From: a virus
Strand: one strand, 5' to 3'
Virus record (IMG/VR): IMGVR_UViG_3300009768_000008
Coordinates: 905 to 64,904 of that record
Length of the DNA: 64,000 nucleotides
Part shown: piece after piece, positions 12,081 through 48,785 of the stretch
Layout of the letters: each line of letters begins with the position of its first letter
How positions within the stretch are numbered: the first letter of the stretch is position 1
The notes under the pieces: model-generated
What the model was told of the DNA's origin: nothing
Database searches by the model: none
What the model saw: the letters and a program-made list of their open reading frames with translations, nothing else
Program-made: the position numbers and the translations under genes

Positions 12081-12427
12081 GATTTGGTTTTTTGGTTTTT
12101 ATAATAAGCAACCTGATATCAGGTATGTCTTAATCTTGGTACCTGGGAAGAGTTACGAGCTCTTCGTGGACGCATCCCCAGGCTACTAAACAGGTTTTCC
12201 TCCTGTAAACTCCTTTCACGATCATGACTTCGTTACTCATCCCGTCATTGAGGGACCGGTAAAAACCGGGAGGGGGTACTAAATGACTCAAAGTGGTGCG
12301 GGTGTTTTCCGGTAAACCGGTGGCCATTAATCCCGTTCTGAGTACTGTTCTTTTTTAACTTAGCAGCCTTTCTTGCCGCCTTTCTTACCGCCTTTACCTT
12401 TCATGGTGTTTGGTTTTGAGCTAACTA

Positions 12428-12474: not shown

Positions 12475-14094
12475 TTAGAAAGAACCACCAGTGATCGGGT
12501 TCCTCATCACGATCTTCAGCACTTTTGTCGGGTCTTTTACCCAGATTGCCGGCATGGTCTGAGTCATGAACACGCGGTAACCGTTGAAGTTACCAGAGCT
12601 TTGGAAGCCTTGTGTACGACCCATGTAGTCCATAGTACCGTTCTGGTAGAACCACTTCAGTTGATTGTCCCAAGACAGCTTCAGAAGGAAGATGTTGTCG
12701 TTGGTGTTATCAGTGATGTCGAAGATGATGAAGTTGTAGCTAGACAGCGGGAAACCGTCGATGATCGGGTTCTCGATGTCATTTGTGTGTACGTTGTCGA
12801 ACGCAGGGTTCAGGACAAACTTCACGTTAGCTAAGAACGGAATAACGTACTGAGTGTAAGCGAAACCGAAGTTCAGGTCCATACCCTTACCAGTGATAGC
12901 TCCGATTTCAGAAGCGTTGATCACCAGACCAGAGTTGATAGCCTCACGTTTGATGGCTTCGTTTACCAGGCGCATACCACCCATACCGGTCTGAACGATA
13001 AGCTGACGCTTAGGATCCGGACCTTGGAACTCAACCTTACCGTTGAAGAAGTTGAAGATCTCACTCTTGAACAGATCCAGGTTGAAGGAACCTTTGTTGT
13101 AGATGCGTTTGAAGCTGTTATCCAGCTGTTTCCACAGACCCACAGAAAGGCGGATATCGTCCGGACCGTCTTGCTTAACCTTACCACCTTGACCCCACAT
13201 TAGGTAAGTCTCGATGTCGTTAGCAATCTTAGTCAGGTGAGCAGCTTCCAGGGTTGTAAGGAAGGAGCGAGACAGTTGACCAGATTGATAAGCTTTCTTC
13301 ACGTAGTCCTTACCCATCTTGGCAGCCATGTCTTCCAGGTTGGTAATAGAAGGATCTACAGTCTTATCGAAGTTTCTCCACAGCTCGATTACCGGTACAG
13401 TACCGTCGGCTTTCATACCACCTTTCAGCATCAGGTCAGCGCGACTGGAGATGCTGTAGTGTACGTGAGCTTCTGCACCACCAACGTAGTTGTAGAACTC
13501 ACGGAAACCTGCAGACACATTACCGATATCAGAGAAACGTTCACCGTACTCACCGCGGGCAGAACCCTTACGGAATACTTTGGTACCAACACGCAGGTAC
13601 TTGTTATCCAGGTACTTAGCGTTGTCGTTGTTTACCAGTTGCACAGTGTAGATGAAACCATCACCAGCAGGGATGATATCATCTTGAGTGATATACATCT
13701 CAACACCGTTGTACTTGTCGTAGGTGATGATATCACCATGACCAAAGGAACGTTTGTTGATCTTGATCTTGAAGGTCTGGCCGTCAACACCTTTTGTAGT
13801 GTTTGAAGACTCAATATCCTCCACGATGTAAGGAAGGTCCTGGGCTACAGGTACCTGCCACTTATACTCACCTCTGGAGTTATCTACAGAGATAACATTC
13901 TTACCACCGAAAGAGGACATCTGGTACAGAGGCATTTCTACCTTTTGTGCCATAGCCCACAGGTCAACAGGTCCGAGATCAGTCGGCTCTGCTGATTTCA
14001 GCAGGTTAGAGAGGTGGTATGAGTCTACGTGTGAGCTAGTTTGATAGCTGGTATCCCGTAGAAATATACCATTGTTTAAAACAGGGGTTGCCAT
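12475..14094 (-). CDS. putative major capsid protein (539 aa)
   Basis: Immediately downstream of an acidic scaffold-like gene, in the canonical order terminase, portal, scaffold, capsid. Followed by a GC hairpin. Confidence 0.5.
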   Translation of the reverse strand: MATPVLNNGIFLRDTSYQTSSHVDSYHLSNLLKSAEPTDLGPVDLWAMAQKVEMPLYQMSSFGGKNVISVDNSRGEYKWQVPVAQDLPYIVEDIESSNTTKGVDGQTFKIKINKRSFGHGDIITYDKYNGVEMYITQDDIIPAGDGFIYTVQLVNNDNAKYLDNKYLRVGTKVFRKGSARGEYGERFSDIGNVSAGFREFYNYVGGAEAHVHYSISSRADLMLKGGMKADGTVPVIELWRNFDKTVDPSITNLEDMAAKMGKDYVKKAYQSGQLSRSFLTTLEAAHLTKIANDIETYLMWGQGGKVKQDGPDDIRLSVGLWKQLDNSFKRIYNKGSFNLDLFKSEIFNFFNGKVEFQGPDPKRQLIVQTGMGGMRLVNEAIKREAINSGLVINASEIGAITGKGMDLNFGFAYTQYVIPFLANVKFVLNPAFDNVHTNDIENPIIDGFPLSSYNFIIFDITDNTNDNIFLLKLSWDNQLKWFYQNGTMDYMGRTQGFQSSGNFNGYRVFMTQTMPAIWVKDPTKVLKIVMRNPITGGSF

Positions 14095-26117: not shown

Positions 26118-26245
26118 TAAACAAAACTCAGCAGTAGTAGTTGTCTTTAGAGTGGACTATTTCTCACTGAGGTAAGTAGATTACTAAGGGGTAATACTTA
26201 GTAAAATTAATCAGTGTCAGCTTATATACAACTGATTCTTATCAG

Positions 26246-26317
26246 TTTCCTCCCCTGGGTACGATCCAGGAACTGCAGGGCCAAAACCTGCCGTGATACC
26301 AGTTTCACCAAAAGGAA
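26246..26317 (-). tRNA. tRNA-Gln (anticodon UUG)
   Basis: Hand-folded cloverleaf. Acceptor UUCCUUU/GGAGGAA; D GUGA-AACUGGUA-UCAC; anticodon stem GCAGG/CCUGC with loop UUUUGGC; T CCUGG-AUCGUAC-CCAGG. Confidence 0.6.
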
Positions 26318-26323
26318 ATAGTG

Positions 26324-26395
26324 GGTGTAAGGACGGTACCGACCCGTCTTCCCCAGGTCCACAACCTGGTGCATCACCTTAATGCTTCAAACACC
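26324..26395 (-). tRNA. tRNA-His (anticodon GUG) with G-1:C73
   Basis: D GCAU/AUGC; anticodon CCAGG-UUGUGGA-CCUGG; T GACGG-GUCGGUA-CCGUC; extra 5' G pairs with C73; the acceptor stem has two U.U mismatches. Confidence 0.5.
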
Positions 26396-26400
26396 ATAAG

Positions 26401-26472
26401 AGCCTTCTACCGGAACCGACCCGGTAAGTCCTGTTTACAAGACAGGCAGTTTTCCAGTTAGCTTAAGAAGGC
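26401..26472 (-). tRNA. tRNA-Thr (anticodon UGU)
   Basis: acceptor GCCUUCU/AGAAGGC perfect; anticodon CCUGU-CUUGUAA-ACAGG; T ACCGG-GUCGGUU-CCGGU. Confidence 0.55.
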
Positions 26473-26477
26473 CTGTG

Positions 26478-26550
26478 TGGTACAGAGTGGTTACGATCCA
26501 CTTCCCCCGGTTTTTCAGACCGGTGCTTCTACCAAGTTAGCTTCTGCACC
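26478..26550 (-). tRNA. tRNA-Phe (anticodon GAA)
   Basis: acceptor GGUGCAG/CUGUACC; anticodon CCGGU-CUGAAAA-ACCGG; T AGUGG-AUCGUAA-CCACU. Confidence 0.6.
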
Positions 26551-26625
26551 AAGTAGGACTTTGTCAAAGCCGGCCACTCCTGCACAAAGAGGAGACCAGC
26601 TTGATCAGGTGTCCTGAAACCTTTG

Positions 26626-26698
26626 AGGTGGGTGGGAAACTCGAAGCCCCGTATGACTGTTTTGCGGACAGTTGCCTTACCATCTTGGCGAACCCACC
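26626..26698 (-). tRNA. tRNA-Cys (anticodon GCA)
   Basis: acceptor GGUGGGU/ACCCACC perfect; anticodon ACUGU-CCGCAAA-ACAGU (C33 unusual); T-loop UUCGAGU. Confidence 0.5.
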
Positions 26699-26704
26699 AT
26701 GTTG

Positions 26705-26776
26705 TCTAGCTGATCTGGATCGAACAGACGTAATCTTGCTCCCAAAGCAAGTGCCTTACCGCTAGGCTACAGCTAG
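26705..26776 (-). tRNA. tRNA-Pro (anticodon UGG)
   Basis: acceptor CUAGCUG/CAGCUAG; D GCCU-AGCGGUA-AGGC; anticodon CUUGC-UUUGGGA-GCAAG; T GUCUG-UUCGAUC-CAGAU. Confidence 0.65.
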
Positions 26777-26830
26777 AAAAAGAAAACCCCCAAACCGTTT
26801 TACCAGTCTGGGGGTTAGTATTTTGATTTT
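26774..26830. terminator. bidirectional terminator-like hairpin AACCCCC-(17 nt)-GGGGGTT flanked by U tracts on both strands
   Basis: read directly; abuts the 5' end of tRNA-Pro. Confidence 0.5.
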
Positions 26831-26944
26831 GTACTTCTTAACTCGTTGCTATGATCACTGTACATACACCAACACAACTACCCCCGCAGACCGGACAAGG
26901 TTGCGTAAACTGGGTAAACTGTGTATGGGTAGTAATCTTCTTCA

Positions 26945-26986
26945 TCTACAATACAAAGATACTACTTTTTGTAGAACTACCAAAAT
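26945..26986 (-). promoter_or_regulatory. Bacteroidetes-type sigma-A promoter (minus strand): -33 TTTG at 26983-26986 and -7 TATCTTTG at 26952-26959, 19-nt spacer containing GTTCTAC
   Basis: matches the TTTG / TAnnTTTG consensus with canonical spacing; the same extended motif recurs at six or more sites. Confidence 0.5.
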
Positions 26987-26993
26987 CTTTTTG

Positions 26994-27066
26994 CACGGGC
27001 CCAGGGAAACGATCCCTGTCCATCCGAGGTTTTGGAGACCTGGTGCATACCATTATGCTGGCCCAT
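26994..27066 (-). tRNA. tRNA-Trp (anticodon CCA), reduced D-loop
   Basis: acceptor AUGGGCC/GGCCCGU; anticodon CAGGU-CUCCAAA-ACCUC (4 bp); T CAGGG-AUCGUUU-CCCUG; D-loop only 4 nt. Confidence 0.45.
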
Positions 27067-27071
27067 GTATG

Positions 27072-27155
27072 TGGGAAGTGAGTGAGTCGAACACCCCGAG
27101 TCCGTAGACAGCTGGTTTACAATCAGCCCCGCTACCACTTACGGTATAACTTCCC
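27072..27155 (-). tRNA. tRNA-Tyr (anticodon GUA), long variable arm
   Basis: acceptor GGGAAGU/ACUUCCC perfect; anticodon GCUGA-UUGUAAA-CCAGC; variable hairpin; T GGGUG-UUCGACU-CACUC. Confidence 0.55.
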
Positions 27156-27235
27156 CTATTTCGCATATCCAGTCAGTAGTCTTTCCGTCAAAAGCTATCA
27201 ACCAGAGTATGCCGTTCATATTAACGATGTACATG

Positions 27236-27321
27236 CAGAGAGCAGAGTAGTCGAAACCCACCCCGGTTAAGGAGCCCACTGTTTAGCAAACAGGTCTGAC
27301 CACCTAGTCAGTTTACTCTCT
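27236..27321 (-). tRNA. tRNA-Ser (anticodon GCU), long variable arm
   Basis: acceptor AGAGAGU/GCUCUCU; 3-bp D-stem; anticodon CCUGU-UUGCUAA-ACAGU; T-loop UUCGACU. Confidence 0.5.
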
Positions 27322-27326
27322 AGATG

Positions 27327-27418
27327 CGGAAGGCAGAGGAACCGACCCCCATGCCCGTGTAAGGGGCAGCCTAGTTTTCAAGACTAGTCGCCACTCCAAT
27401 GTAGCTGCATTACCTTCC
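27327..27418 (-). tRNA. tRNA-Ser (anticodon UGA), long variable arm
   Basis: acceptor GGAAGGU/GCCUUCC; anticodon CUAGU-CUUGAAA-ACUAG; variable hairpin UGCCC-CUUACAC-GGGCA; atypical T-arm. Confidence 0.5.
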
Positions 27419-27424
27419 ATGTAG

Positions 27425-27510
27425 TACCGGTGGAGGGGGATGATCCCACACGATCCTTTCGGATCACAAGATTTTAAGTCTTGCGTGTCTGCCTATTTCA
27501 CCACACCGGC
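27425..27510 (-). tRNA. tRNA-Leu (anticodon UAA), long variable arm
   Basis: acceptor GCCGGUG/CACCGGU; anticodon CAAGA-CUUAAAA-UCUUG; variable hairpin GAUCC-GAAA-GGAUC. Confidence 0.55.
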
Positions 27511-27591
27511 AGTTGTCTGGACTCTCACCATAGCAGTCAGGGATTTCAGGTCCCCAGGTGTGCATTCAATTCGTCCCACCTTCTGACATCG

Positions 27592-27674
27592 TACCTCTGA
27601 CAGGCCTCGAACCTGCACCCGTTTCCGGACTAGATCCTAAGTCTAGCGTGTCTCCCAAGTTTCACCACAGAGGT
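27592..27674 (-). tRNA. tRNA-Leu (anticodon UAG), long variable arm
   Basis: acceptor ACCUCUG/CAGAGGU; anticodon CUAGA-CUUAGGA-UCUAG; T GCAGG-UUCGAGG-CCUGU. Confidence 0.55.
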
Positions 27675-27685
27675 ATAAAAACCAA

Positions 27686-27715
27686 AATCCCGACCAGGAA
27701 AACCTAATCGGGATT
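27686..27715. terminator. hairpin AATCCCGA-(14 nt)-TCGGGATT followed by a U tract (plus strand); also U-flanked on the minus strand
   Basis: read directly. Confidence 0.4.
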
Positions 27716-27941
27716 GGAAACTTTTTCAGTAACTACATACCTCACCCGATTGGTTTATGCAACCAATACAGACTGAGTGAGGATAGAGTAAACTGCTTCA
27801 TAAAAATTTGGTGGATGGTCACCCCACTTGTTTTAATCTAAACAAGAAATCATCGGTCGGTTACGTTAACTTCTCAGCTTGAACGCCTGTCGTGTGACCT
27901 TTCAGCTTTCACGCCTGTTAAGAGGCTTTACCGACCATCAC

Positions 27942-27990
27942 AATACAAATATACAACTCTTTTGGAGTTCTACAAAATATTTTTGTGGAG
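27942..27990 (-). promoter_or_regulatory. Bacteroidetes-type promoter (minus): -33 TTTG inside ATTTTGTAGAAC, 19-nt spacer, -7 TATATTTG. Also a near-palindrome TCTACAAAAtatTTTTGTGGAG.
   Basis: read on the minus strand: ctccacaaaaatatTTTGtagaactccaaaagagttgTATATTTGtattg. Confidence 0.55.
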
Positions 27991-28061
27991 ACTCTGGAAC
28001 TTGAATCCAGCTGATATCCTGCTTGCAAGGCAGGTGTCCACTCCTGGCAGACCCAGTCCCC
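27986..28061 (-). tRNA. tRNA-Ala (anticodon UGC)
   Basis: acceptor GGGGACU/AGUCUCC (G.U); anticodon CCUGC-CUUGCAA-GCAGG; T CUGGA-UUCAAGU-UCCAG; 7-nt variable region is unusual. Confidence 0.45.
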
Positions 28062-28067
28062 ATGCTG

Positions 28068-28139
28068 TACTCTCGGGTGGTAACGATCCACCTACCTTCT
28101 CCGTATCAGGGAGCTACTCTACCATTGAGCTACGAGAGT
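28068..28139 (-). tRNA. tRNA-Ile (anticodon GAU)
   Basis: acceptor ACUCUCG/CGAGAGU perfect; D GCUC-AAUGGUA-GAGU; loop CUGAUAC; T GGUGG-AUCGUUA-CCACC. Confidence 0.6.
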
Positions 28140-28144
28140 ATAAG

Positions 28145-28217
28145 TTGATCCGGGTGGGTACGATCCACCGACCTTGACGTTATGAGCGTCCTGCTACTAC
28201 CACTGAGCTACGGATCA
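28145..28217 (-). tRNA. tRNA-Met (anticodon CAU), copy 1
   Basis: acceptor UGAUCCG/CGGAUCA; D-arm GUAGCUCAGUGGUAG; loop CUCAUAA; T GGUGG-AUCGUAC-CCACC. Confidence 0.55.
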
Positions 28218-28222
28218 GTATG

Positions 28223-28296
28223 CGGTCCGTACCGGGATCAAACCGGTCATCTCTGGCGTGACAAGCCAGCGTCTTCATCGTGCAGACCCACGGACC
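28223..28296 (-). tRNA. tRNA-Asp (anticodon GUC)
   Basis: acceptor GGUCCGU/ACGGACC perfect; anticodon CUGGC-UUGUCAC-GCCAG perfect; T ACCGG-UUUGAUC-CCGGU. Confidence 0.6.
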
Positions 28297-28302
28297 AAAT
28301 AG

Positions 28303-28376
28303 TACCCCCACCGGAGATCGAATCCGGTTCTTCACCGTGAAAGGGTGGCGTCCTGTACCTTCTAGACGATAGGGGC
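28303..28376 (-). tRNA. tRNA-Glu (anticodon UUC)
   Basis: acceptor GCCCCUA/UGGGGGU; D CGUC/GACG; loop CUUUCAC; T CCGGA-UUCGAUC-UCCGG (canonical). Confidence 0.55.
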
Positions 28377-28456
28377 AAATTGGAGGCTTAGGACTCCATC
28401 ATCCTCCTTGAGATCCCGGCGTCCTTCTACTTTTTATAGTACGGATCTCTTTTACG

Positions 28457-28528
28457 AGCAGCATCTCGGGGTCGATCCGAGTTCTCCGGTTTGGAAGACC
28501 GGCACATCAGCCCTAATGCTTATGCTGC
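28457..28528 (-). tRNA. tRNA-Gly (anticodon UCC)
   Basis: acceptor GCAGCAU/AUGCUGC perfect; anticodon CCGGU-CUUCCAA-ACCGG perfect; T CUCGG-AUCGACC-CCGAG. Confidence 0.6.
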
Positions 28529-28639
28529 ATGAAAGAACAGAGCTCCAGGGGAATCTCACCCGTCTGTCCGGAACAGACCTCACTGCCTTTTACTATGTAC
28601 GGTATTTACTCGTACACAACAGCTACCTGAAGATGATCT

Positions 28640-28710
28640 TGGTTGCGGGGCCGGGATTTGAACCCGGGAAACACGGCTTATGAGACCGGTCGGCCACCTG
28701 GCTCCCCACA
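28640..28710 (-). tRNA. tRNA-Met/Ile2 (anticodon CAU), copy 2, CCA encoded, reduced D-arm
   Basis: T CCGGG-UUCAAAU-CCCGG; acceptor UGUGGGG/CCCCGCA plus ACCA; loop CUCAUAA; the 8-48 region is about 6 nt short. Confidence 0.45.
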
Positions 28711-28719
28711 ATAAAACTG

Positions 28720-28793
28720 CGGACTCTCCGGGGAACGATCCTGGAACCTTCACCTTAACAGGGTGCCGCTCTACCAGTTGAGCTAAGAGTCCG
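28720..28793 (-). tRNA. tRNA-Asn (anticodon GUU)
   Basis: acceptor GGACUCU/AGAGUCC perfect; D GCUC-AACUGGUA-GAGC; loop CUGUUAA; T-loop AUCGUUC. Confidence 0.55.
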
Positions 28794-28865
28794 TATACTT
28801 AGAAGGATTCCAACCTTCACTTTCAGTTTAGAAGACTGACGTGCTAAGCATTACACCATAAGTAC
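28794..28865 (-). tRNA. tRNA-Arg (anticodon UCU)
   Basis: acceptor GUACUUA/UAAGUAU; anticodon UCAGU-CUUCUAA-ACUGA perfect; T GAAGG-UUGGAAU-CCUUC. Confidence 0.55.
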
Positions 28866-28870
28866 ATATC

Positions 28871-28944
28871 TGGAAGACCCGGAGGTAGTCGAAACCCCAT
28901 CATCACGTTCGTAGCGTGATATCCTTCCATTGAACGACGGGTCC
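28871..28944 (-). tRNA. tRNA-Arg (anticodon ACG), CCA encoded
   Basis: acceptor GGACCCG/CGGGUCU; D GUUC-AAUGGAA-GGAU; anticodon UCACG-CUACGAA-CGUGA; T GGGGU-UUCGACU-ACCUC; 3' UCCA. Confidence 0.55.
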
Positions 28945-28996
28945 TTGTTAAGACCGTCTTCGGTAATATGTACTGTAGTGTGTCATGTCTTCTGTC

Positions 28997-29073
28997 TGGT
29001 AGCTCCTATCCGGGTCGAACGGATGCATTCTCGGTATGTAACACCGAAGCTCTACCACCTGAGCTAAGGAGCT
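28997..29073 (-). tRNA. tRNA-Val (anticodon UAC), CCA encoded
   Basis: acceptor AGCUCCU/AGGAGCU perfect; D GCUC-AGGUGGUA-GAGC; anticodon UCGGU-GUUACAU-ACCGA; T AUCCG-UUCGACC-CGGAU; 3' ACCA. Confidence 0.6.
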
Positions 29074-29136
29074 ATTTGAAGCTCATTATTGAGCTTGAAT
29101 GAGCTGAATATTGAGCTTAATCGGCTCATATATCTT

Positions 29137-29208
29137 GTTCCCCCGTCCGGTAACGATCCGGACCCCACGGATTAAAAGTCCGTTGCCTACACCTGTTTGC
29201 TACGAGGG
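29137..29208 (-). tRNA. tRNA-Lys (anticodon UUU)
   Basis: acceptor UCCCUCG/CGGGGGA (G.U); anticodon ACGGA-CUUUUAA-UCCGU perfect; T UCCGG-AUCGUUA-CCGGA; weak D-stem. Confidence 0.5.
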
Positions 29209-29244
29209 AAAATAAAAAACCCCGGTAGCTGGTGCTCCGGGGTT
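29208..29244 (-). terminator. intrinsic terminator (minus): AACCCCGG-(11 nt)-CCGGGGTT plus TTTTTTATTTT, abutting the 5' end of the tRNA array
   Basis: read directly. Confidence 0.6.
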
Positions 29245-38629: not shown

Positions 38630-38718
38630 GTTACCAGTCCAAACTTTTTTTGTTTACACTTTGTAGAACTAAGAAAAACGTCTACATTTGTTCTACATCT
38701 TTAAAGTTTACATGTTAC

Positions 38719-39437: not shown

Positions 39438-40165
39438 AACATTCTAAAGTCGTAGGCCAGATCTACGAAACAACCAATTATGAAATGTTCAAAAAACGCA
39501 GTGACAACCGTCAGCTGAAAGAACACATCGTAAAAGAAAGAATGGAAAGCATCAAGCAGATTGGCCAACAAGATGCTATCAAGGTTTCTAAAGACTTTAT
39601 GGTAGACGACGGCCAACATCGGTTGGAAGCTTGCAGAAGGCTTCAAAAACCGGTAAAATATACTTTCCAGGAAGAGCCGCTCAGTACTCACGAGCTGGCC
39701 ACCTTGCAGACACAATCTTCCCGGTGGAAGGTTGAAGACCACGCTCAATCTTTCCTGTCAAAAGGAATTGAAGACTACAGACTTTATAACCTGTTTGTAA
39801 AACTCTATCCTGAGTTCAACCACAGTGTTGCGTTAGTTCTTCTGACCAATACGATCAGCAGAAACCGTCACACTGAAGAACAATTCAAGATCGGAACATT
39901 CAAAGTGAAAAGCTATACGAAAGCCGTTAAGCTGGCAGATCAGCTTAGAAAAATAGGTGAGTACTATGAAGGCTATGTTCGTAATGGATTTATCCAGGCA
40001 TTTCTGACTTTGGCTGAACATCCGGACTTTGAGTTCAACCGGTTACTCCGGAAGATTCCTAAGCGTAGGAAAGAACTGATGGACTTCTCTAAAGCAGAGG
40101 ATTACATCCAAACACTGGAACATATGTACAACTGGAAAGAAACCAAGAAAGTACAGTTTACATAA
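39434..40165 (+). CDS. ParB-like nuclease-domain protein (243 aa)
   Basis: VDDGQHRLEACRRL matches the ParB/Srx DGxHR motif. Confidence 0.5.
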   Translation: MKHSKVVGQIYETTNYEMFKKRSDNRQLKEHIVKERMESIKQIGQQDAIKVSKDFMVDDGQHRLEACRRLQKPVKYTFQEEPLSTHELATLQTQSSRWKVEDHAQSFLSKGIEDYRLYNLFVKLYPEFNHSVALVLLTNTISRNRHTEEQFKIGTFKVKSYTKAVKLADQLRKIGEYYEGYVRNGFIQAFLTLAEHPDFEFNRLLRKIPKRRKELMDFSKAEDYIQTLEHMYNWKETKKVQFT

Positions 40166-40200
40166 TCCAGCTTCAACAACTTTTAAAACCTCAATCGTCT

Positions 40201-40422
40201 ATGCGTAAACTAATCTTAGAGATCCTGGTAGCACTGGTAACACTTTGTGTGACTGTTAATGCGGTGTACTACCTGGGAGATATCCTCTCCGGAAAAATCA
40301 ACTTCCTCATCATGTTTGTGGTACTGTTTGCTCTCGGAGTTTGTGTCATAGCATCAGTTTACGTTCTGATGAGAGTGGTTAAAACCTATTCTCAAACTGT
40401 AAAAAAACAAAGTAAGTCATGA
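40201..40422 (+). CDS. small membrane protein (73 aa) coupled to an SPFH gene; NfeD-like partner?
   Basis: two TM helices; 4-nt overlap with the downstream gene. Confidence 0.35.
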   Translation: MRKLILEILVALVTLCVTVNAVYYLGDILSGKINFLIMFVVLFALGVCVIASVYVLMRVVKTYSQTVKKQSKS

Positions 40423-41405
40423 TTTTCCTCATCACCCTCATCTTGTCACTCGGCCTTTTAGGTCTGATGTTCGGGATCTTCAATTTCAACAACTACGTTA
40501 AAGTAGTCAAAAAAGAAGTAAACTACGGTAGCAGAACCCAAACTATTGAAGAAGAACAAGTCAACGTTGCTCAGATCATTAAGACAGCAGCCGTTGTTCT
40601 CTTCTGTATCATCGCATCTGCTGTAAATCCTCTTTCCCTGCAGCGTATTGACGCCGGTAATGTGGGTCTTAAGATCGACAAAGTCGGTAACATGAAAGGT
40701 ATCCCTACCGCTATCCCGGTAAAGGGTTGGGTATTCTATAATGACTGGACTACAGACATCGTAGAGTATTCTATCCGCCAGGGTCACGTACAGTATGAAG
40801 CATTCGATGTAACTACCAAAGGTGGTTTCAACATCAAGGTAAACCCGAGCTTCAACTTTGCCCTGAAACCTGAGAAAGCCGCGGACGTCTATATCAACCT
40901 GCTGAAAGGTGGAAGCTTCTCCAGTCTTACTGATAACTGGATCAAGACAGCTACCAACATCGCCATGAATAATGCTACGAATAAGTATACCATTGACAGC
41001 ATCTTCAACAACCGGGAACACTATCAACAGGATATCATCAAAGAGCTCAACAAAGAAATGAGTGCTTACTTTACTGTGTCCCAGATCAATCCTGGTGTTG
41101 TCCCGCCTCCGGAACTGGCTAACGTAATCAAGCAGAAAACTGAAACTATTCAGAAAGCACAACAGGCTGAGCTTGACCGTATTACAGCTGAGAACGAAGC
41201 TCTTACAAAGATCGCTACGGCTCGTGGTGACTCAGCTCAGGCTGTGATCCAGGCTGCAGGTAGGGCCGAAGCTATCAAGCGTGAACAACAGACTCTTACA
41301 CCCTTATACATCGAGTATATCAAAACTCAGAAGTGGAACGGTGATGTACCCAGTACTGTGTTAGGTAACTCCAACGGGTTCATGATCAACCTCAATAACA
41401 AGTAA
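40419..41405 (+). CDS. SPFH/band-7 (stomatin/HflK-like) domain protein (328 aa)
   Basis: N-terminal TM, central alpha/beta region, C-terminal Ala/Glu-rich coiled coil (AQQAELDRITAENEA...AAGRAEAIKREQ). Confidence 0.45.
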   Translation: MIFLITLILSLGLLGLMFGIFNFNNYVKVVKKEVNYGSRTQTIEEEQVNVAQIIKTAAVVLFCIIASAVNPLSLQRIDAGNVGLKIDKVGNMKGIPTAIPVKGWVFYNDWTTDIVEYSIRQGHVQYEAFDVTTKGGFNIKVNPSFNFALKPEKAADVYINLLKGGSFSSLTDNWIKTATNIAMNNATNKYTIDSIFNNREHYQQDIIKELNKEMSAYFTVSQINPGVVPPPELANVIKQKTETIQKAQQAELDRITAENEALTKIATARGDSAQAVIQAAGRAEAIKREQQTLTPLYIEYIKTQKWNGDVPSTVLGNSNGFMINLNNK

Positions 41406-41460
41406 CAAAGAGCCGGGTAAAACCGGCTCCCTTCATATCACCCTAAAAAATACTACTGCT

Positions 41461-41700
41461 ATGTGGTTTAACAGCAAGCCCCAAGACAGTGTCCTGGAAC
41501 TCCAGGATCGTTCTAAAAACGTGGTGGACGTGTTTACAAGAACCGTTGAAGATCTGAAACAGATTAACCACGATATCCAGAATCTTTCTGAGAAGAAAGA
41601 ACAAGAAAAAGCCAAGTTGGAAGGTGAACTGGCTACCCTGGATGGCCAGAAGGTTTCCAACAACAAAGTCATCGAGAAGATCAACAAGATCTTTGAGTAA
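41461..41700 (+). CDS. coiled-coil protein (79 aa)
   Basis: ORF track. Confidence 0.4.
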   Translation: MWFNSKPQDSVLELQDRSKNVVDVFTRTVEDLKQINHDIQNLSEKKEQEKAKLEGELATLDGQKVSNNKVIEKINKIFE

Positions 41701-41714
41701 CCCAAACTAAAAGC

Positions 41715-42020
41715 ATGGAAAAAAGACGTGTAGGAGCAATCCTCTCCTCTTCAGAAAACGAAGTTCGGTTTCTGGGATATGGATGGTACGTCGGTGATCA
41801 CGTACCTGAATACAAAGAAGGTGCAGGTATGAGAAACTTGATGAGTAAGATGGATATGACCAACCCCAAAATCGAATTGGACAACGGTACCGTTGTATAC
41901 GGCTGTGAATGCTGGTGGGGTCCGGAAGAAAAGATCAAAGAGCATATGGAAGGTCGTAATGTAGTTGAAGTAAGCATCGAAGAACTCTTCGGTCCTGAAC
42001 CTGCAGCACAACCTGAATGA
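41715..42020 (+). CDS. hypothetical protein (101 aa)
   Basis: ORF track. Confidence 0.4.
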   Translation: MEKRRVGAILSSSENEVRFLGYGWYVGDHVPEYKEGAGMRNLMSKMDMTNPKIELDNGTVVYGCECWWGPEEKIKEHMEGRNVVEVSIEELFGPEPAAQPE

Positions 42021-42221
42021 TCTGATACTGAGAGCTAGTAAGTAATCTATGGGGAAGTCCGTCGAACAGTTTTTCACTTAGTACCGTCCCCGTGTGATAA
42101 TAGGCGTAGCCGGTCTGGGAACCGTGCATAAACCCAGTAGATCCACTCGAAGTAGTGTGAAAGCTATCCTCAGTATAGACCTTGGCTTGGAACACTTGTG
42201 CCAGTAAACAGGTGTACTCAG

Positions 42222-42294
42222 GGAGTAGCTCAGATAGGAGAGCATCCGGGCGACCCCCGGAAGGTCGGTGGTGCAAGTCCACCCTTCCTAACTA
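42222..42294 (+). tRNA. tRNA-like gene with non-canonical anticodon loop GCGACCC (no U33); acceptor stem has 6 of 7 pairs
   Basis: D GCUC-AGAUAGGA-GAGC; anticodon stem UCCGG/CCGGA; T GGUGG-UGCAAGU-CCACC; acceptor CAGGGAG/CUUCCUA. Confidence 0.4.
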
Positions 42295-42308
42295 AACCAA
42301 AGAAACCT

Positions 42309-43109
42309 ATGAGTTACGCCATTAAACTTTTATTCTTTTTAGGTAGTTGTATTCTTGCATTTGTAGCCGGTAGGCTTACAAGCAGTCTGTCTTACCACTG
42401 GAGTCAAGTGGATGGGCCGAATCAGGCCGTTATAGTTTCACCCAATGACAGTACCACACAAGTCAACGGTTTGGTACAGGGTGTCTATCATTTTGAGTTA
42501 GCAGTTACCGACCCTCAAGGAGCTACAGGACGGGATACCATGATGGTTACCGTACTTCCTGGAGTTCTTCCTATCAAACTGGTTTACTTCAAAGCGTACC
42601 CGCTGGCTGATGTAAACATGATCAAGTGGAAAACATCTGAAGAGATAAACATAAAAGAGTTTATCCTGGAATCCTCTACAGACGGTGTTCATTTTTACGG
42701 TCTCTATCATACGTTTGCTATCGGAGCTACACCAACCTCTCCTTCTGAGTATGACTATGAACATAAGTTCCCAGGAAGAGAGCAGTATTACAGACTTAAG
42801 TCTATTGAGACATCTGGTACTTATACATACAGTGATGTTGTAAAAGTAACCAGATCTATTTCGACATCTATTTGGTCAAACAACCCTGTTACATCGACTC
42901 TTAATGTTACCATAAACGTAGATAATGCTACTACAGCTAACTTCTACATTTATGATGCTACCGGAAGAAGAATGGCATTCTATACGTACAATCTAAGTCC
43001 TGGTAAGAACAGTTTCAGTTATCATACTGGTCAGTATGCTTCTGGTCTGTATATCATTAAAGTTGACGTAGGAGGTATTATCTCAACCAAAAAATTCGTC
43101 AAACAATGA
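42309..43109 (+). CDS. secreted protein with a T9SS (Por) C-terminal sorting domain (267 aa from the Met at 42309)
   Basis: N-terminal signal/TM (MSYAIKLLFFLGSCILAFVAG). C-terminus FYIYDATGRRMAFYTYNLSPGKNSFSYHTGQYASGLYIIKVDVGGIISTKKFVKQ matches the type-A CTD consensus. The ORF-track start at 42198 was rejected as an N-terminal extension. Confidence 0.55.
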   Translation: MSYAIKLLFFLGSCILAFVAGRLTSSLSYHWSQVDGPNQAVIVSPNDSTTQVNGLVQGVYHFELAVTDPQGATGRDTMMVTVLPGVLPIKLVYFKAYPLADVNMIKWKTSEEINIKEFILESSTDGVHFYGLYHTFAIGATPTSPSEYDYEHKFPGREQYYRLKSIETSGTYTYSDVVKVTRSISTSIWSNNPVTSTLNVTINVDNATTANFYIYDATGRRMAFYTYNLSPGKNSFSYHTGQYASGLYIIKVDVGGIISTKKFVKQ

Positions 43110-43369
43110 ACCCTCATGCTTTAATAACCTTTATCGTTTGTATAGGAGGTTTTCTTTGGCTTGTTACATCCAGTACTATCGTTGTTCTATGCAAGCCACA
43201 GCTTCCCAAGCTTTGGTGGTATAAAAACTGGTTACTTATTGTACAGGTACTCTGTGCTTTTATACTACTTCTGATGGGACTTCAGAAAGCTTCTCAAGAT
43301 GTTGGATTCAAAGAAGACAAACCTCAATACGAACAAATCAATGAACCTTTATACAGATTAAAACAGTAA
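43106..43369 (+). CDS. membrane protein (87 aa)
   Basis: two TM helices. Confidence 0.4.
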   Translation: MNPHALITFIVCIGGFLWLVTSSTIVVLCKPQLPKLWWYKNWLLIVQVLCAFILLLMGLQKASQDVGFKEDKPQYEQINEPLYRLKQ

Positions 43370-43381
43370 AACGAAACACAC

Positions 43382-43780
43382 ATGAAAAAGCTCTTCTTTA
43401 TCCTTTGTCTGACAGTAGGATCTCTTATGGCAAACGCCCAACACGTTACTGTTGAACCCCACGTTGTAGTGGAACCGCATGTAACCCCTGTTGAACACGT
43501 TACTCCGGTCACAGAACATGCTGTACCGGTAGAACATTTCACGCCCAGTCATCCATATTCAGCATCCGAAGAATACCACCCGGTATATAATGGTGGTGTC
43601 TGGTTTGCCCTGATCCATAACCACCAGACCGGTAATACCGATACTGTAAAGGCATCCTCTAAGAATGAACTGGATAAGATGATCCAGGATAAAACGGTAG
43701 ATGAAGATGAAGGACGTACCGGAGCAATGCTCTTGGTACTGGTTATTCTTTTATTTGTTCTTGGTCTGTTCTTTTTATAA
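43382..43780 (+). CDS. secreted, membrane-anchored repeat protein (132 aa)
   Basis: signal peptide; VEPHV/VEHVTP repeats; C-terminal TM. Confidence 0.45.
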   Translation: MKKLFFILCLTVGSLMANAQHVTVEPHVVVEPHVTPVEHVTPVTEHAVPVEHFTPSHPYSASEEYHPVYNGGVWFALIHNHQTGNTDTVKASSKNELDKMIQDKTVDEDEGRTGAMLLVLVILLFVLGLFFL

Positions 43781-43787
43781 CCACCAT

Positions 43788-44096
43788 ATGAAAAAACAAA
43801 TCATTGTTACGATCCCGGATAATCCGGATTATAGAGTTGTAGCCGACTTTGGTACTTTCAACAATGTGATTGAAGACGTCTGGTTCTTTGTACTTCAAAA
43901 ACGAGAGTATCGGAAAAAGTGGGGGTTCTTTGGTAAACCTCAACCACGATGGATCGAAGTAGATTCCAGATGGACGTCTGACGATTTTACAACGTCTTCA
44001 AAAGTATACAAATATGCTTTTGAACTCTATGATTTACTCGTAGGGAAACGTCTCAACAGAGCCCGTAACGCACAGGAGATAGAACGTTCACTATAA
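43788..44096 (+). CDS. hypothetical protein (102 aa from an internal Met)
   Basis: ORF 43701..44096 trimmed to avoid overlap. Confidence 0.35.
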   Translation: MKKQIIVTIPDNPDYRVVADFGTFNNVIEDVWFFVLQKREYRKKWGFFGKPQPRWIEVDSRWTSDDFTTSSKVYKYAFELYDLLVGKRLNRARNAQEIERSL

Positions 44097-44335
44097 ACTT
44101 CTTAATACCTGCTGAAAGCAAAACAACTGAAACCAAGTATCCGCCGGTAGTAGCGGTTTAAACAGTGAGTACACTTACCTTGGTTAATTCAGAACCCCTA
44201 CCAAGAGGGAGTTGTTTGTGGACAGATACTCTGATAAGTAAAGCCTCTTGGACTCAAACTCCAACGTAACGTAAGGATAAAGTATTCACACACTTGGAGT
44301 GACAGGTATTAACTTCTAAAACCCTTAACAAGCAT

Positions 44336-44791
44336 ATGGCTACTAAAAAGAAAGCTGCTAAAAAGAAAGCAGCGTACAAACCACTGAACCCTACGTTCTT
44401 TAAACAGGTTACAGTATCGGAGCTTGACTGGTCAAAAGTTCCTGTTGGTACAAAAGTGACAGCAAAAGTAGACCGAACAATCATTACTGGAAGGATCTAC
44501 AAAGAAGATAAAGAGATTTTGATCTGTCACAATAACAGAAACAAAGACTGCTATACAGAAGGTTTATTAGGATATAAATACTCTGTTAACATTGGAACCG
44601 GTTCTCCTGTTGATCTTAAACACAACGAAGTTCAGATCCTGGAACTTGAACGTGATCCTAACTGGGTAGCACCAGTTCAGATCTTTATTGACGGGGATGC
44701 TATCATCTTCGGAAAAGGTAAGATCAGAGTGGGATGTACCACCGTTAAAAACGAAGTTGTCAGAGAGATAGCAAAGAATCTCGTTGACTAA
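44336..44791 (+). CDS. hypothetical protein with a Lys/Ala-rich N-terminus (151 aa)
   Basis: ORF track. Confidence 0.45.
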   Translation: MATKKKAAKKKAAYKPLNPTFFKQVTVSELDWSKVPVGTKVTAKVDRTIITGRIYKEDKEILICHNNRNKDCYTEGLLGYKYSVNIGTGSPVDLKHNEVQILELERDPNWVAPVQIFIDGDAIIFGKGKIRVGCTTVKNEVVREIAKNLVD

Positions 44792-45485
44792 TAAGCTTGT
44801 AAAGTATGTAGTCTTCCAGTGACATGAGGACGGTAAGATGTATCGGTTAATAACCAGAGTCTTACGAGTAAGTCACCTTTACATGATCAGGCTAAACATT
44901 GAAGCCTTTGTACGCTGCTCGACGACATTTGTAACGTGAGTCAGACTGCATAAAGATAACAACCCTGAATGAACAGGGTGTAGATAACCTTAAAGCAATA
45001 AGAGGTGAGAAAAGTACCTTGAGGGTCTAAGAACGATGGACACTTTTATAGTGCACCAGTTTCCCGCCAGAGTAAGGACGGAGGGACTAAGACTATATCT
45101 TTCAAAATCTATGGAGTAATCCTGTACGTGTTGTTCCCTTGAGAAAGGAAGGGTTACGTGGATGAGCGTGGTTAAGAGCCTACCCCCAACAACACGAATG
45201 AGTTTTCAGCAAGTAGTTATGAGGAGGAGATTAAGATTCTCTATCAGGTACAGAAGCCAAAGCGGAGTGCTCTGTTAGGTAAATGGGATGCTTGAGTAAG
45301 CCGTTATATTAAAGCATCGGTAATAACTACACGACCCTACTCTTATAGAAGACTGAGGCTTGATAAGAGCCCATCCTCACTGAAATATGACCAGACCTCT
45401 TTTACATGACCAAGTTTGTAGAAGAAGGGTACTGTAAGGAGTCATTACTATAAGACAAGAGGGTGCTAGTGATTTACAAGGAACA

Positions 45486-46151
45486 ATGACGCATTACGGC
45501 CTGGGTCTTTACCCGGGCCTCTTTTTCTTAATCCAAAAAACCAGAAACATGAGTCAAAAGGAAGACTTGAGTATAGCCGGATCAGGTAGTCCAATCTCAC
45601 TTAAAAAGTTCTTACTAAAACATCCTGATGCCAAACCTCTGACTGTCTTGGTTGACGGTACAGGGTTAGGTATAGCTAAGGATGATTCAGGTACAATATA
45701 CATCACTCGTGAAGATTGTGCCCAACAAGCCCTGTACTACTGTAAAGAAGTATTTGATGGAGTAAGAGTTCCTGCTTACCTATTCAGGTACCTGAACTAC
45801 ATGATGTTTGATGACGAGCGTTGGAATGACGATAAACAAGTAGCCCAGGCTTTCATTGACGGTACAGTAAACGATCAGTCAGAAGAGTACCTCCGGGTCA
45901 AAAACTTCTTGACCTATGCAGAACACAATCCAGAAGGATTACAGGTCATAGGTCTTATTCAGCTTATTGGAGGTAGTCTGAACATGGCTCGTAAACGTAA
46001 CTCAGGTATCCGGATCTATCTTGAACACCCTGAGACAGCCTTGCATCCAAAAAGACAATCACGTTTTATAAGCTTGTTTTACAAGCTTCAAAAAGATTAT
46101 GGTTATGAGGAGGTTCAACCAGCGCATGACGTGGATGGTGACCAAGACTAG
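45486..46151 (+). CDS. hypothetical protein (221 aa)
   Basis: ORF track. Confidence 0.4.
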   Translation: MTHYGLGLYPGLFFLIQKTRNMSQKEDLSIAGSGSPISLKKFLLKHPDAKPLTVLVDGTGLGIAKDDSGTIYITREDCAQQALYYCKEVFDGVRVPAYLFRYLNYMMFDDERWNDDKQVAQAFIDGTVNDQSEEYLRVKNFLTYAEHNPEGLQVIGLIQLIGGSLNMARKRNSGIRIYLEHPETALHPKRQSRFISLFYKLQKDYGYEEVQPAHDVDGDQD

Positions 46152-46195
46152 TAACCATAGTCTTTTTTAACAAATCTAAAACCCCTTTACATACA

Positions 46196-46531
46196 ATGAA
46201 AAAGATCATCTTTTCAATCTTAACAGCAGTAGTACTGCTGAGTGCATGTGAAACATCTGAAGGTATCAAAGCTGGTACCTTACAGAAAGTAAGTCATAAG
46301 ACCTTCCCCTGCTCCTACTATGTAGCGGAGTTTGCATTTGAAGGTGGCCGGGCATCTGGTTCTAACGACTCAAAAGCTTACGCGAACACCCAGGAAGTGG
46401 AAATCACTAAAGAAGCTTTTGACAGCCTCCAGAACCTGGTAGGAAGCCGTGTACGGTTCTCCTACAAAGACGAAGGTTTCAAGGCGTGTGCTCCGAATAA
46501 AAAACTGGAGACACTGGCTGTCATTAAATGA
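46196..46531 (+). CDS. lipoprotein (111 aa; lipobox LLSAC)
   Basis: MKKIIFSILTAVVLLSAC. Confidence 0.45.
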   Translation: MKKIIFSILTAVVLLSACETSEGIKAGTLQKVSHKTFPCSYYVAEFAFEGGRASGSNDSKAYANTQEVEITKEAFDSLQNLVGSRVRFSYKDEGFKACAPNKKLETLAVIK

Positions 46532-46884
46532 TCAAACCGGTTGGGTAGCACAAACACAGAAACTGTCCAAATGTTGTACAACTCTGTATGAACATCTGAG
46601 CCAAGTAGTGCGTCGGTGTCCAAAGCCGAAGATGATGGGGTAGGTCCATCCCTGGCCACACGTTCCGAAACATGACAACGGATAGTACCATCCTGTATGA
46701 TGAGAAGCAGAGTGATGTCTGTATGGATAAGTGACAACTTCTTTGAAAGTTGTGGGCCGACAGCCTGAGATCTGTGATCTTAAAAGTCTAGTCCTAACTC
46801 ACCTAGAAAAAACAGCAGGGAGGGGATAACCCTCTGTGAGGACAGCCACGGTACTTGCAAGCTGGATAAATTAGAGTACCACAC

Positions 46885-47005
46885 GGGCTTATTAGTTCAG
46901 TGGCAGAACACCGGGTCCGATGAGGCGGCTTTTATTAAGGTTATTGCAACCCCAAAAGAAAACCGAAACCCCGGGAGGTCACCAGTTCAAATCTGGTATA
47001 AGCCC
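46885..47005 (+). tRNA. tRNA-like gene with a roughly 50-nt insertion in the anticodon loop. Acceptor and D arm (GGGCUUAU-UA-GUUC..GAAC) and T arm plus acceptor (ACCAG-UUCAAAU-CUGGU-AUAAGCC-C) are intact.
   Basis: acceptor 7/7 pairs plus G-1:C73; anticodon-stem halves CCGGG ... CCCGG separated by 53 nt. Confidence 0.4.
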
Positions 47006-47039
47006 CTATAAACAAACACTTTAAATTAGTCTAAAGCTT

Positions 47040-47279
47040 ATGAAAGTCTTATTCGGAAAGATGCCCAGTAAGTTGATCGTACGTTTGAAGATAGCACTGG
47101 GTATCTTTACTATCTGTACGATCTTTGGGATTATAGGGTACTTTGTACCTTCTTCAAAGCCTCCCTTACTTAGAACATTTGCTGCGTTCATCCTACCACT
47201 TGCTTGTCTAACAGCAGTTCTGATCTTGTTTAAGATCATGGAATTTATCCTGTGGTGTTTTGATTGTAAGCCCAGGTAA
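47040..47279 (+). CDS. small membrane protein (79 aa)
   Basis: hydrophobic. Confidence 0.3.
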   Translation: MKVLFGKMPSKLIVRLKIALGIFTICTIFGIIGYFVPSSKPPLLRTFAAFILPLACLTAVLILFKIMEFILWCFDCKPR

Positions 47280-48363
47280 AAATATAGTACAGAGGAGGTA
47301 GGCTTGGAAGTAGCCATAAGGTAGAACCTTACTCTTGGGTTGAGGCTGGCTGAGATCAGATATACATCTAAGAGTCCTTTAAAGAGTTGCAAGTAGGACC
47401 CGTAACTGATTATGTGACGACTAAAAGTGGTAAAACTACAGGAGATATAGTCCTGATGAAAAGAAGTAAGCGTCAATAGGACTGAGTAGCTGGATTATTA
47501 TACACTCCTTAGAGCATTTGGTGTAACAACACACTCTGTACTTTTTTCTTAGCTCCGGGGATCACACCATCCGTCAATCTGGTTGTGTTATGTTTAAGCA
47601 AGCTTAAAAGAGCAGCTCCATTGGTCTGTTTACTGTCTGGTGAGCTCAGACTTTAAAAAGTAGAATGGGTCAACTGGAAAAGCTGCAGAAATATTTGTAG
47701 AACTCCTAAAAAAGTTCTATATTTGTTCTACACTGGGCCCGTCTGGTTTAGACAGCAGAGTGAGTGGTAACTACACATGTGGACAAAGTAAGAACGTCCT
47801 AAAATACTTACAAAACAATAAACGCTATGACTAAGTCTGAGCGTGTAGCAGAAGGTGAAGCTATCCTGGCTTCTATCTTCGTTGATGAGGCTGTAGCAGC
47901 CTGATCCTACGGGGGATCTATCCCTGGCAACAGAAAATAGAACTGAAGTCTTATATGAGCATACAGAACTAAACGGGACATATGCCGTAAAGTAATCCGT
48001 GTATAAGACGTAGAGTGGCTCCCTTAATAGTCTAGGCTGACCTAGAGCATTCTAACTGAAGCATGGTATACAGGGGGTGAAGCCGTGCAACCCAGCTATG
48101 GGTTACCAGAATGATACAGTTACAGATGAGCGTAGTATGTGAAAACATTCAAATAAGTATCTGTTATAAAAAGTATAGTGACTGAATGTTTGGTAGTAAT
48201 AGCATGTTTTCCTGGTTATGTCAAAACTAGGTGGTGGAGTAGGCGGTCTTGATTGGACGCCCCCAAACTACGGTGCAGATGAAGTGACGCAGTCTTTTAG
48301 ACTTGATCCAAAGTAATCAGTACTAAACATGTAATACGTTGTAGTTATTGACTTCTTTGTTGG

Positions 48364-48392
48364 ACACGAGTTCGATTCTCGTCGGGTCCACT
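48364..48392 (+). other. tRNA 3'-half-like element: T arm ACGAG-UUCGAUU-CUCGU plus acceptor CGGGUCC-A, with no 5' half
   Basis: read directly; canonical T-loop. Confidence 0.4.
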
Positions 48393-48785
48393 CTCTCAAA
48401 GCTAAGCAATCGTTAGACCCCCGGTGGTTTCTACTACTGGGGTTTTCTTTTTAAACAAGTTACTCAACATATTTTCTTAGAGATGTTCTCTTTGAAAATC
48501 TGGATACGTCTTTATCCAAGTCCCGTGGGGAAGGTCATTGAGACCATAGACTGTCACAAGAGGAAAAAACTGGAAGATTCTTACGGCAGTTAAGATATCC
48601 TGACTTCAATGTCGAAGTAACACTTGTCGTAGACGGGTTTAAAAAAGAGTAGTACAATTCTAGATATGTACGTTGATCCTGAGTATTTATACAATATACC
48701 CGCTGATACAGAAGTATCAGAGACGTAAACTCCTGTCTGACGACCAGTACGTTAAACTGGTCTTTTTACATCCTTAACCAAGCAT

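Follow-up and report, generated by a model that had tools for sequence, protein, structure and literature searches.

A tRNA-shaped gene with an aberrant anticodon loop inside a phage operon, possibly a former tRNA retained as a processing element

Among the protein genes of a large phage lies a 73-nt gene with the full fold of a tRNA and a scrambled anticodon loop. We read this element as a former tRNA of the Met, Ile, or Val type that has lost decoding and kept its L-shaped body as a site for cutting by RNase P and RNase Z, and we put the probability of this reading a little short of even, at about 0.48. The fold, deviations, operon context, and positional ortholog are observed, whereas transcription, cleavage, and any benefit to the phage are inferred. 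The sequence analyzed, called the window throughout, is a stretch of 64,000 nucleotides (positions 905 to 64,904 of IMG/VR record IMGVR_UViG_3300009768_000008).

Results

The element has a complete tRNA fold

The first-pass annotation of this DNA had placed a tRNA-like gene at 42222..42294. The gene is real, and its best fit is 3 nt further upstream (Table 1), where it reads CAGGGAG UA GCUC AGAUAGGA GAGC A UCCGG GCGACCC CCGGA AGGUC GGUGG UGCAAGU CCACC CUUCCUA A. The D stem, anticodon stem, T arm, and six of seven acceptor pairs named there are borne out by both the sequence and the cloverleaf fold; the gap to the ATG at 42309, given as 15 nt, is 17 nt in the sequence. Standard pairs are present at 20 of the 21 helix positions (helices of 7, 4, 5, and 5 pairs), the exception being C1·A72, and the tertiary nucleotides U8, A14, G15-C48, G18, G19-C56, G53-C61, and U54-A58 are all kept. 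Energy minimization also yields the cloverleaf, in which G32 pairs with C38 and so lengthens the anticodon stem to 6 bp and shortens its loop to 5 nt (CGACC).

An Infernal search against the Rfam tRNA and tmRNA models, which the annotation had proposed, was run locally. It gave a tRNA match (RF00005) of 42.8 bits (E = 1e-7, model positions 1-71) against a gathering threshold of 29 bits, and no tmRNA match (RF00023) at the locus even at E = 10. The tRNA score lies within the 30-65 bits of the phage's accepted tRNAs in Rfam, and the match is far beyond chance. With default settings ARAGORN left the element uncalled; at 90% thresholds (-ps90) it reported a tRNA-Val(gac) at 42219..42292. Rfam cmscan of the whole 64-kb window, in gathering and E-value modes, left the element unreported and a 700-nt search reported it, the whole-window miss being due to loss in the speed filters and not to a low score. 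Noncanonical tRNAs that score above threshold can drop out of filtered scans. Our own covariance model, run with filters off, found no further strong tRNA-like element in the window.

Table 1. Coordinates of the element, its parts, and the features discussed with it (window positions unless a relative is named)
Feature	Position	Strand	Remarks
tRNA-shaped gene (the element)	42219..42291	+	73 nt, full cloverleaf
Acceptor stem	42219-25 / 42284-90	+	C1·A72 mismatch, one G·U
D arm	42228-43	+	D stem GCUC/GAGC
Anticodon arm	42245-61	+	Stem UCCGG/CCGGA
Anticodon loop GCGACCC	42250..42256	+	G32 C33 G34 A35 C36 C37 C38
Variable loop	42262-66	+	AGGUC
T arm	42267-83	+	GGUGG-UGCAAGU-CCACC
T loop UGCAAGU	42272..42278	+	U54, C56, A58 kept; G55 replaces U
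Discriminator A73	42291	+	Read from the sequence
5' leader hairpin	42192..42215	+	Stem ACACUUGU / ACAGGUGU, 8-nt loop
A-rich 17-nt trailer CUAAACCAAAGAAACCU	42292..42308	+	From discriminator to ATG; no encoded CCA
Noncoding spacer	42021..42191	+	Between the 101-aa gene and the leader hairpin
79-aa gene	41461..41700	+	Upstream of the element; homolog in L237
101-aa gene	41715..42020	+	Unannotated family, invariant G-x-E-C-W-W-G motif
Downstream gene	42309..43109	+	266-aa secreted protein, PKD domain and T9SS C-terminal sorting domain
TTTGTAGAACT sites	15466, 26968, 27966(-), 38055, 38660, 47694, others		TAnnTTTG about 14 nt on at the RNA genes and at 38660
tRNA array	26245..29209	-	23 tRNAs, all 20 amino acids
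Second aberrant tRNA-like gene	46886..47005	+	53-nt segment replaces the anticodon loop; 46.2 bits
Phage tmRNA	47735..48393	+	659 nt; promoter 47694..47726, terminator 48419..48442
L237 tRNA-Ile(AAU)	L237 11794..11868		ARAGORN default call; 65 bits with our own covariance model R1

The anticodon loop and T loop depart from those of decoding tRNAs

A loop lacking U33 and a purine at position 37 had been described earlier, and C33 and C37 of GCGACCC agree with that description. Two more departures had gone unmentioned: position 55 of the T loop is G, and the D loop has one base after GG. The deviations now listed for the element are C1·A72, G32, C33, C37, G55, and the single D-loop base after GG. 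As a comparison set we took the 23 array tRNAs of this phage, in which position 37 is a purine in 23/23, position 33 is U in 22/23, and position 32 is a pyrimidine in 22/23. The array tRNA-Val(UAC) has G32 like the element, and the array tRNA-Cys has C33; therefore, only C37 and G55 are unprecedented within the genome.

To our knowledge, a pyrimidine at position 37 is essentially unheard of in decoding tRNAs. A C1·A72 mismatch is the signature of bacterial initiator tRNAs and disfavors binding to EF-Tu. The element thus carries several independent translation defects: C37, C33, closure of the loop by G32-C38, G55, and C1·A72. The features of a decoding tRNA that it fails are U33, purine 37, the U54-U55(Psi)-C56 run, and a call by a default tRNA finder. 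Judging from these bases, the anticodon loop is most likely unable to decode.

The body of the element resembles the array tRNA-Met and tRNA-Ile and the tRNA-Met of other phages, and its best DNA match is a tRNA-Met of Streptomyces phages (78% over 58 nt). We considered an initiator tRNA, with which C1·A72 and A73 would agree, and rejected it for want of A11:U24, the G29-31 run, and the CAU anticodon. An initiator-like tRNA is already present in the array (28640..28710). A search for GCGACCC in a tRNA context found none in IMG/VR, in 185,579 genomes, or in the JGI metagenomes, a collection that seems to lack the phage's own contigs, which were not among the matches. The matches to the loop pattern (75 in IMG/VR, 17 in the JGI metagenomes, and 37 in the genomes) are chance hits in GC-rich coding DNA. 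A pattern confined to the anticodon stem matched 14 ordinary viral tRNAs with seven different specificities, so the scaffold is generic.

The element appears to lie in the middle of an operon

The neighboring genes encode a ParB-like protein, a Band_7 protein, two small unknown proteins, and the PKD and Por_Secre_tail protein; no integrase or recombinase family was matched among them. The operon genes are tightly packed except for a 288-nt gap, which holds the element. A promoter-like motif, TTTGTAGAACT, occurs 17 times in the window against 2.4 expected. The full promoter, TTTG-N17-23-TAnnTTTG (of the Bacteroidota -33/-7 type), precedes the tRNA array (four minus-strand sites) and the tmRNA (47694), and on the plus strand it is found only at 38660 and 47694. 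There is no plus-strand promoter motif from 39794 to 47694 and no plus-strand terminator from 41.4 to 43.2 kb, and the first strong plus-strand terminator after 38660 is at 45498..45519. At the level of these promoter and terminator patterns, the element appears to sit within an operon running from the 38660 promoter to the 45498..45519 terminator and to have no promoter of its own.

The operon closes with 44792..45497 (plus strand), about 700 nt with no ORF or Rfam family, followed by that strong terminator. Positions 45113..45150 match L231, a relative described below, at 89% (12123..12159), and both copies contain ATAAGACAAGAGGGTGCTA. The stretch is possibly a long noncoding RNA. Since the ATG at 45486 falls within the region of the terminator, 45549 is the probable start of the next gene.

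Genes for the major head protein, the portal, and the terminase also lie in the window, and public contigs of the phage reach a length of 135.6 kb. The T9SS cargo gene and the Bacteroidota-type promoters together indicate a Bacteroidota host. Contigs with the same genes occur in several metagenomes and are about 100% identical to the window, so they offer no population variation to use. A blastn search with 40000..45000 against 50,697 phage records found nothing, nor did an exact 32-mer search of IMG/VR for the region, and single-protein scans of IMG/VR with two flanking genes turned up no close relatives. The best cultured match to the Band_7 protein is that of Flavobacterium phage FL-1 (37%).

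The flanks of the element hold a hairpin and two unusual genes

The leader hairpin, with a predicted energy of -10.1 kcal/mol, ends 3 nt upstream of the 5' end of the element. The remainder of the sequence upstream has little to offer: the spacer (198 nt up to the element) contains no credible ORF and no Rfam family, its folding is no better than that of shuffled sequences (z = -0.35), and no homology to noncoding regions of the relatives L231 and L232 was found. The pattern of the leader hairpin had zero matches in IMG/VR.

Downstream, the product of 42309..43109 matches Pfam PF22352 and PF18962 (Por_Secre_tail), and its signal-peptide-like N terminus begins at the ATG at 42309. A search for homologs of this T9SS protein found none besides itself. 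An ORF that begins at GTG 42198 traverses the tRNA-like gene, and one public gene call of the contig starts there. The 101-aa gene on the upstream side has about 80 homologs (at most 62% identity), which lie in contigs of large and jumbo phages, the longest of 498 kb. Synteny around these homologs is not kept; a tRNA-like gene stands 3' of the gene only in the contigs L010, where a tmRNA follows directly, and L060, where there are two tRNA-Met genes.

A positional ortholog shares the fold and leader but not the loop

Three relatives, L231, L232, and L237, were reached through the Band_7 gene, whose products are 75%, 77%, and 66% identical, respectively, to the window protein. We analyzed L237 over 21 kb of its 42-kb contig. 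It is syntenic with the window, with homologs of five window genes and an orthologous tmRNA tag (..GEAILASIF..AVAA), and between the homolog of the 79-aa gene and the tmRNA, in the same place as the window element, it has a tRNA-Ile(AAU) followed by a 13-nt trailer and an ORF at 11882. The two copies have in common C1·A72, A73, the D stem, TAGCTCAG, and the leader hairpin. The hairpin lies 3-4 nt upstream of the tRNA in both, and its core, CACTTGT-N7/8-ACAGGTG with flanking TTTGG, is kept at L237 11765..11785. On the strength of shared position and sequence features, we take the two to be positional orthologs.

Across the 21 pairs of the two copies, 10 are identical, 1 differs by a one-side change, 9 differ by both-side changes, none is newly broken, and the C·A is retained; the pair count on a model-fitted alignment that includes 46886..47005 agrees. 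Such counts prove the tRNA shape and not later selection, because any two tRNAs show compensated differences, and the comparison is one with a single ortholog. The leader stem is identical in both copies and therefore shows no covariation. Identity between the copies is 8/8 in the D stem, 4/5 in the variable loop, 5/7 in the T loop, and 2/7 in the anticodon loop, which makes the last the least conserved region. Normally, the anticodon loop is the most conserved part of orthologous decoding tRNAs. The L237 loop CUAAUAC is canonical in shape and is accompanied by the T loop UUCAAAU, in contrast to GCGACCC and UGCAAGU in the window copy. The conservation among related phages that the first-pass annotation had suggested looking for thus holds for locus, fold, and leader, all kept in L237, but not for the loop, which occurs nowhere else.

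The L237 gene is itself unusual in combining the anticodon AAU with C1·A72 and the initiator-like T loop UUCAAAU, and its decoding status is uncertain. Few tRNAs of the bacterial type have A34.

No sequence homolog of the element was found in L231 and L232, which are closer relatives, and it is therefore not universally kept. This absence would be expected of a plain pseudogene, a tRNA made redundant by the 23-tRNA array, knocked out, and left to drift, any cutting of which by RNase P and RNase Z would be incidental. With all 20 amino acids served by the array, the gene is dispensable; its changes fall at several function-critical positions, its loop sequence is unique, and the near-identical contig copies give no population signal of constraint. 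Neutral decay, however, should have broken several helix pairs, whereas all 42 helix bases are paired except at the C1·A72 shared with L237. In the loop, by comparison, 4-5/7 positions differ from the plausible ancestors CUGAUAC or CUAAUAC. The conserved leader hairpin in L237 also speaks against drift. Alternatively, one recent event may have changed the loop, and the helices would then be intact because too little time has passed for decay. We consider a plain pseudogene rather unlikely, and it is the rival that survives best.

The phage and its relatives carry other unusual tRNA-like genes

The first-pass annotation had called the element a lone gene far from the tRNA array and on the opposite strand. 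The array is indeed on the minus strand, but a second tRNA-like gene (46886..47005) and the tmRNA lie on the same strand as the element within 5.5 kb.

In 9-10/23 array tRNAs, the T loop begins AUCGU.. and not UUCGA.., with A54/U58 in place of the usual U54-A58; these are the tRNAs for Gln, Phe, Trp, Ile, Met, Asn, and Lys and in part those for Gly and Leu. The tag of the window tmRNA is AMTKSERVAEGEAILASIFVDEAVAA, and the gene was missed by ARAGORN. Its 659 nt greatly exceed the 350-400 nt usual for a tmRNA; the L237 ortholog (12625..13020) has 396 nt and the tag DNNNVSHEAKGEAILASIFGEVAVAA.

In both L231 and L232, other plus-strand tRNA-likes stand shortly before ORFs, and their anticodon regions are aberrant. 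Insert-bearing tRNA-likes were seen at 46886..47005 in the window, L231 12319..12425, L232 3576..3663, and L238 18858..18979, the first three scoring 46.2, 39.5, and 36.5 bits, respectively, with the Rfam tRNA model. Their acceptor stems, D arms, and T arms are normal, with an insert of 20-53 nt in the anticodon/variable region, and each occupies a long noncoding gap 5' of an ORF. The copies in L231, L232, and L238 share the acceptor GUC(A/G)GG and the T arm ACAGG-UUCGAAU-CCUGU. The inserts cannot be aligned with one another and are too short for group I introns. A hammerhead-like CGAUGAG...GAAAC in the insert of 46886..47005 was rejected as a ribozyme; by eye it has no stem I, and it matched no Rfam ribozyme. 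Odd tRNA-likes directly 3' of the Band_7 gene were seen at L231 11213..11311 and L239 7297..7381; they have a normal acceptor stem and T arm and an unrecognizable middle of 46-66 nt. The trailer of the former, ATAACTAAAC, resembles that of the window element, TAACTAAAC.

Decoding, decoy, and attachment-site readings fit less well

If the element were still a working tRNA, it would be a tRNA-Val(GAC) whose odd loop resists host anticodon nucleases. A35, C36, and A73 are the main identity elements for ValRS, and the element has all three; GUU and GUC make up about 40% of the Val codons in the window genes, and the array provides the precedents for G32 (in a tRNA-Val) and C33 noted above. Phage tRNAs have been proposed to carry anticodon-loop mutations that evade anticodon nucleases (PMC10264068), a published hypothesis into which such a loop would fit. 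Against this, a pyrimidine at position 37 is found in 0/23 array tRNAs, G32-C38 closes the loop, C1·A72 disfavors EF-Tu binding, and G55 is a further defect. Moreover, the element has no promoter, unlike the array, and the anticodon of its L237 ortholog is different (AAU). A working tRNA-Val is, in our judgment, improbable.

About equally improbable is an L-shaped decoy or ligand for a defense nuclease, a modification enzyme, or a phage protein, or a tRNA charged for nontranslational use. The body is intact and the loop non-decoding, the phage invests heavily in tRNAs (23 tRNAs, a tmRNA, and other tRNA-likes), and nontranslational pseudo-tRNAs are known (PMC3399842). Yet no partner gene was identified nearby, and a bait for anticodon nucleases would be expected to mimic a real loop, which GCGACCC does not, and to be produced at a high level, for which a dedicated promoter is missing. 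The decoy that the first-pass annotation had proposed thus keeps a small share of the probability, with nothing specific in its favor.

An attachment-site relic of a former integration into a host tRNA gene, also proposed there, is scarcely credible: tRNA genes are common integration targets (PMC3399842), and the downstream gene is an orphan of accessory type that looks acquired, but the cloverleaf is whole and not a 3' fragment, no integrase is found among the neighbors, the phage is large and virulent-looking with its own tRNA set and an ortholog in the same phage context in L237, and the 3' half (CCGGAAGGTCGGTGG-N7-CCACCCTTCC, with the T loop free) had 0 matches among 185,579 species at one genome per species.

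Discussion

How a former tRNA could act as a processing element

The first-pass annotation had named a regulatory or processing element as one option, and we favor it: the gene stands in an operon with no dedicated promoter, it retains the elbow nucleotides, and its leader and position, but not its loop, are conserved in L237. Other plus-strand tRNA-likes with damaged anticodon regions also closely precede ORFs in this phage and its relatives. The cleavage itself is predicted from sequence. In the reading we prefer, a tRNA of the Met/Ile type would have stood at the locus ancestrally, and the window lineage would have lost the constraint on the loop while the helices stayed intact. The operon transcript would carry the element, and host RNase P would recognize its elbow and acceptor stem and cut at 42218/42219. 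The upstream mRNA would then have the conserved leader hairpin at its 3' end, where it would act as protection. A second cut, made after A42291 by RNase Z or a comparable 3' activity, would release the mRNA for the secreted protein with a short, A-rich, unstructured 17-nt leader, and the small RNA set free would be non-decoding.

Substrate choice by RNase P and RNase Z depends on the acceptor/T arm and the G19-C56 elbow and not on the anticodon. The element has these elbow and acceptor features and would be part of an operon transcript, and cleavage is therefore expected at both places. G19 and C56 are present alongside a compact anticodon arm, which is the mascRNA-type arrangement. Recognition by RNase P might suffer from G55 and the shortened D loop, both of which could weaken the elbow.

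If the processing reading is correct, a phage tRNA gene has been reused after its decoding ended, with the fold serving as a cutting signal inside an operon, and the element determines where the upstream message ends and where the mRNA for the secreted protein begins. Should the gene be nothing more than a pseudogene in decay, it would be a commonplace outcome of the turnover of tRNAs in phages rich in them. Because such elements escape standard tRNA finders and filtered Rfam scans, their number in phage annotations is probably too low, and gene callers can extend an ORF across them, as in the public call that starts at 42198.

A wider version of the processing reading can be framed, in which this phage group uses ex-tRNAs as punctuation that sets the ends of mRNAs and long noncoding RNAs in early operons, a counterpart of MALAT1-mascRNA. 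The punctuation set would then comprise the element and the insert-bearing tRNA-likes of the window, L231, L232, and L238. We regard both this general use and this membership as unlikely. The broader pattern, with disabled or expanded-anticodon tRNA-likes and array tRNAs with swapped T-loop bases, could matter more than the single element.

Comparison with known systems

The L237 tRNA-Ile(AAU) matches the element in cloverleaf, position, C1·A72, A73, D stem, leader hairpin, and adjoining ORF. The window copy differs in having the loop GCGACCC and not Y-U-NNN-R-N, in G55, in its short D loop, and in receiving no default ARAGORN call.

Transcripts that join tRNAs to mRNAs are familiar from the E. 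coli thrU-tyrU-glyT-thrT-tufB operon and from mitochondrial tRNA punctuation. As in those cases, the element is a tRNA directly 5' of a coding gene in one unit, with separation by RNase P and RNase Z, which is predicted for the element. The tRNAs in the known cotranscripts are functional decoders, whereas the element lacks decoding features.

In mascRNA the elbow is intact and a longer anticodon stem carries a compact loop; RNase P and RNase Z cut this RNA by reading the G19-C56 elbow (PMC11693755). The element shares with mascRNA and menRNA, which lie at the 3' ends of MALAT1 and MEN-beta, the embedding in a longer transcript (predicted for the element) and the intact G19-C56 elbow and acceptor/T arm. 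It also shares a stabilizing structure just 5' of the RNase P site (PMC11693755; PMC8457004). In contrast, mascRNA and menRNA are eukaryotic, with a reduced D arm and no linker residues, whereas the element is a full 73-nt cloverleaf, tRNA derived, with an mRNA downstream and with cleavage predicted.

Among pseudo-tRNAs, tRNA-Other of Bacillus cereus is likewise tRNA derived, lacks conserved features, and is not expected to act in translation (PMC3399842). It has a recognizable Trp anticodon and flanks a chromosomal genomic island, whereas the element has a scrambled loop and lies in a phage operon. Together with cell-wall tRNAs, the Bacillus pseudo-tRNAs are the models for charging outside translation, one form that the decoy or ligand reading could take. 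The proposed nuclease-evading phage tRNAs (PMC10264068) are, like the element, phage encoded with an abnormal anticodon loop; their loops remain decodable, with single substitutions close to where the nucleases cut, whereas in the element U33 and purine 37 are changed and a 5-nt loop is possible. Set among these systems, the element is a variant of a phage tRNA gene, a pseudo-tRNA, and a tRNA-mRNA cotranscript rather than a new kind of system.
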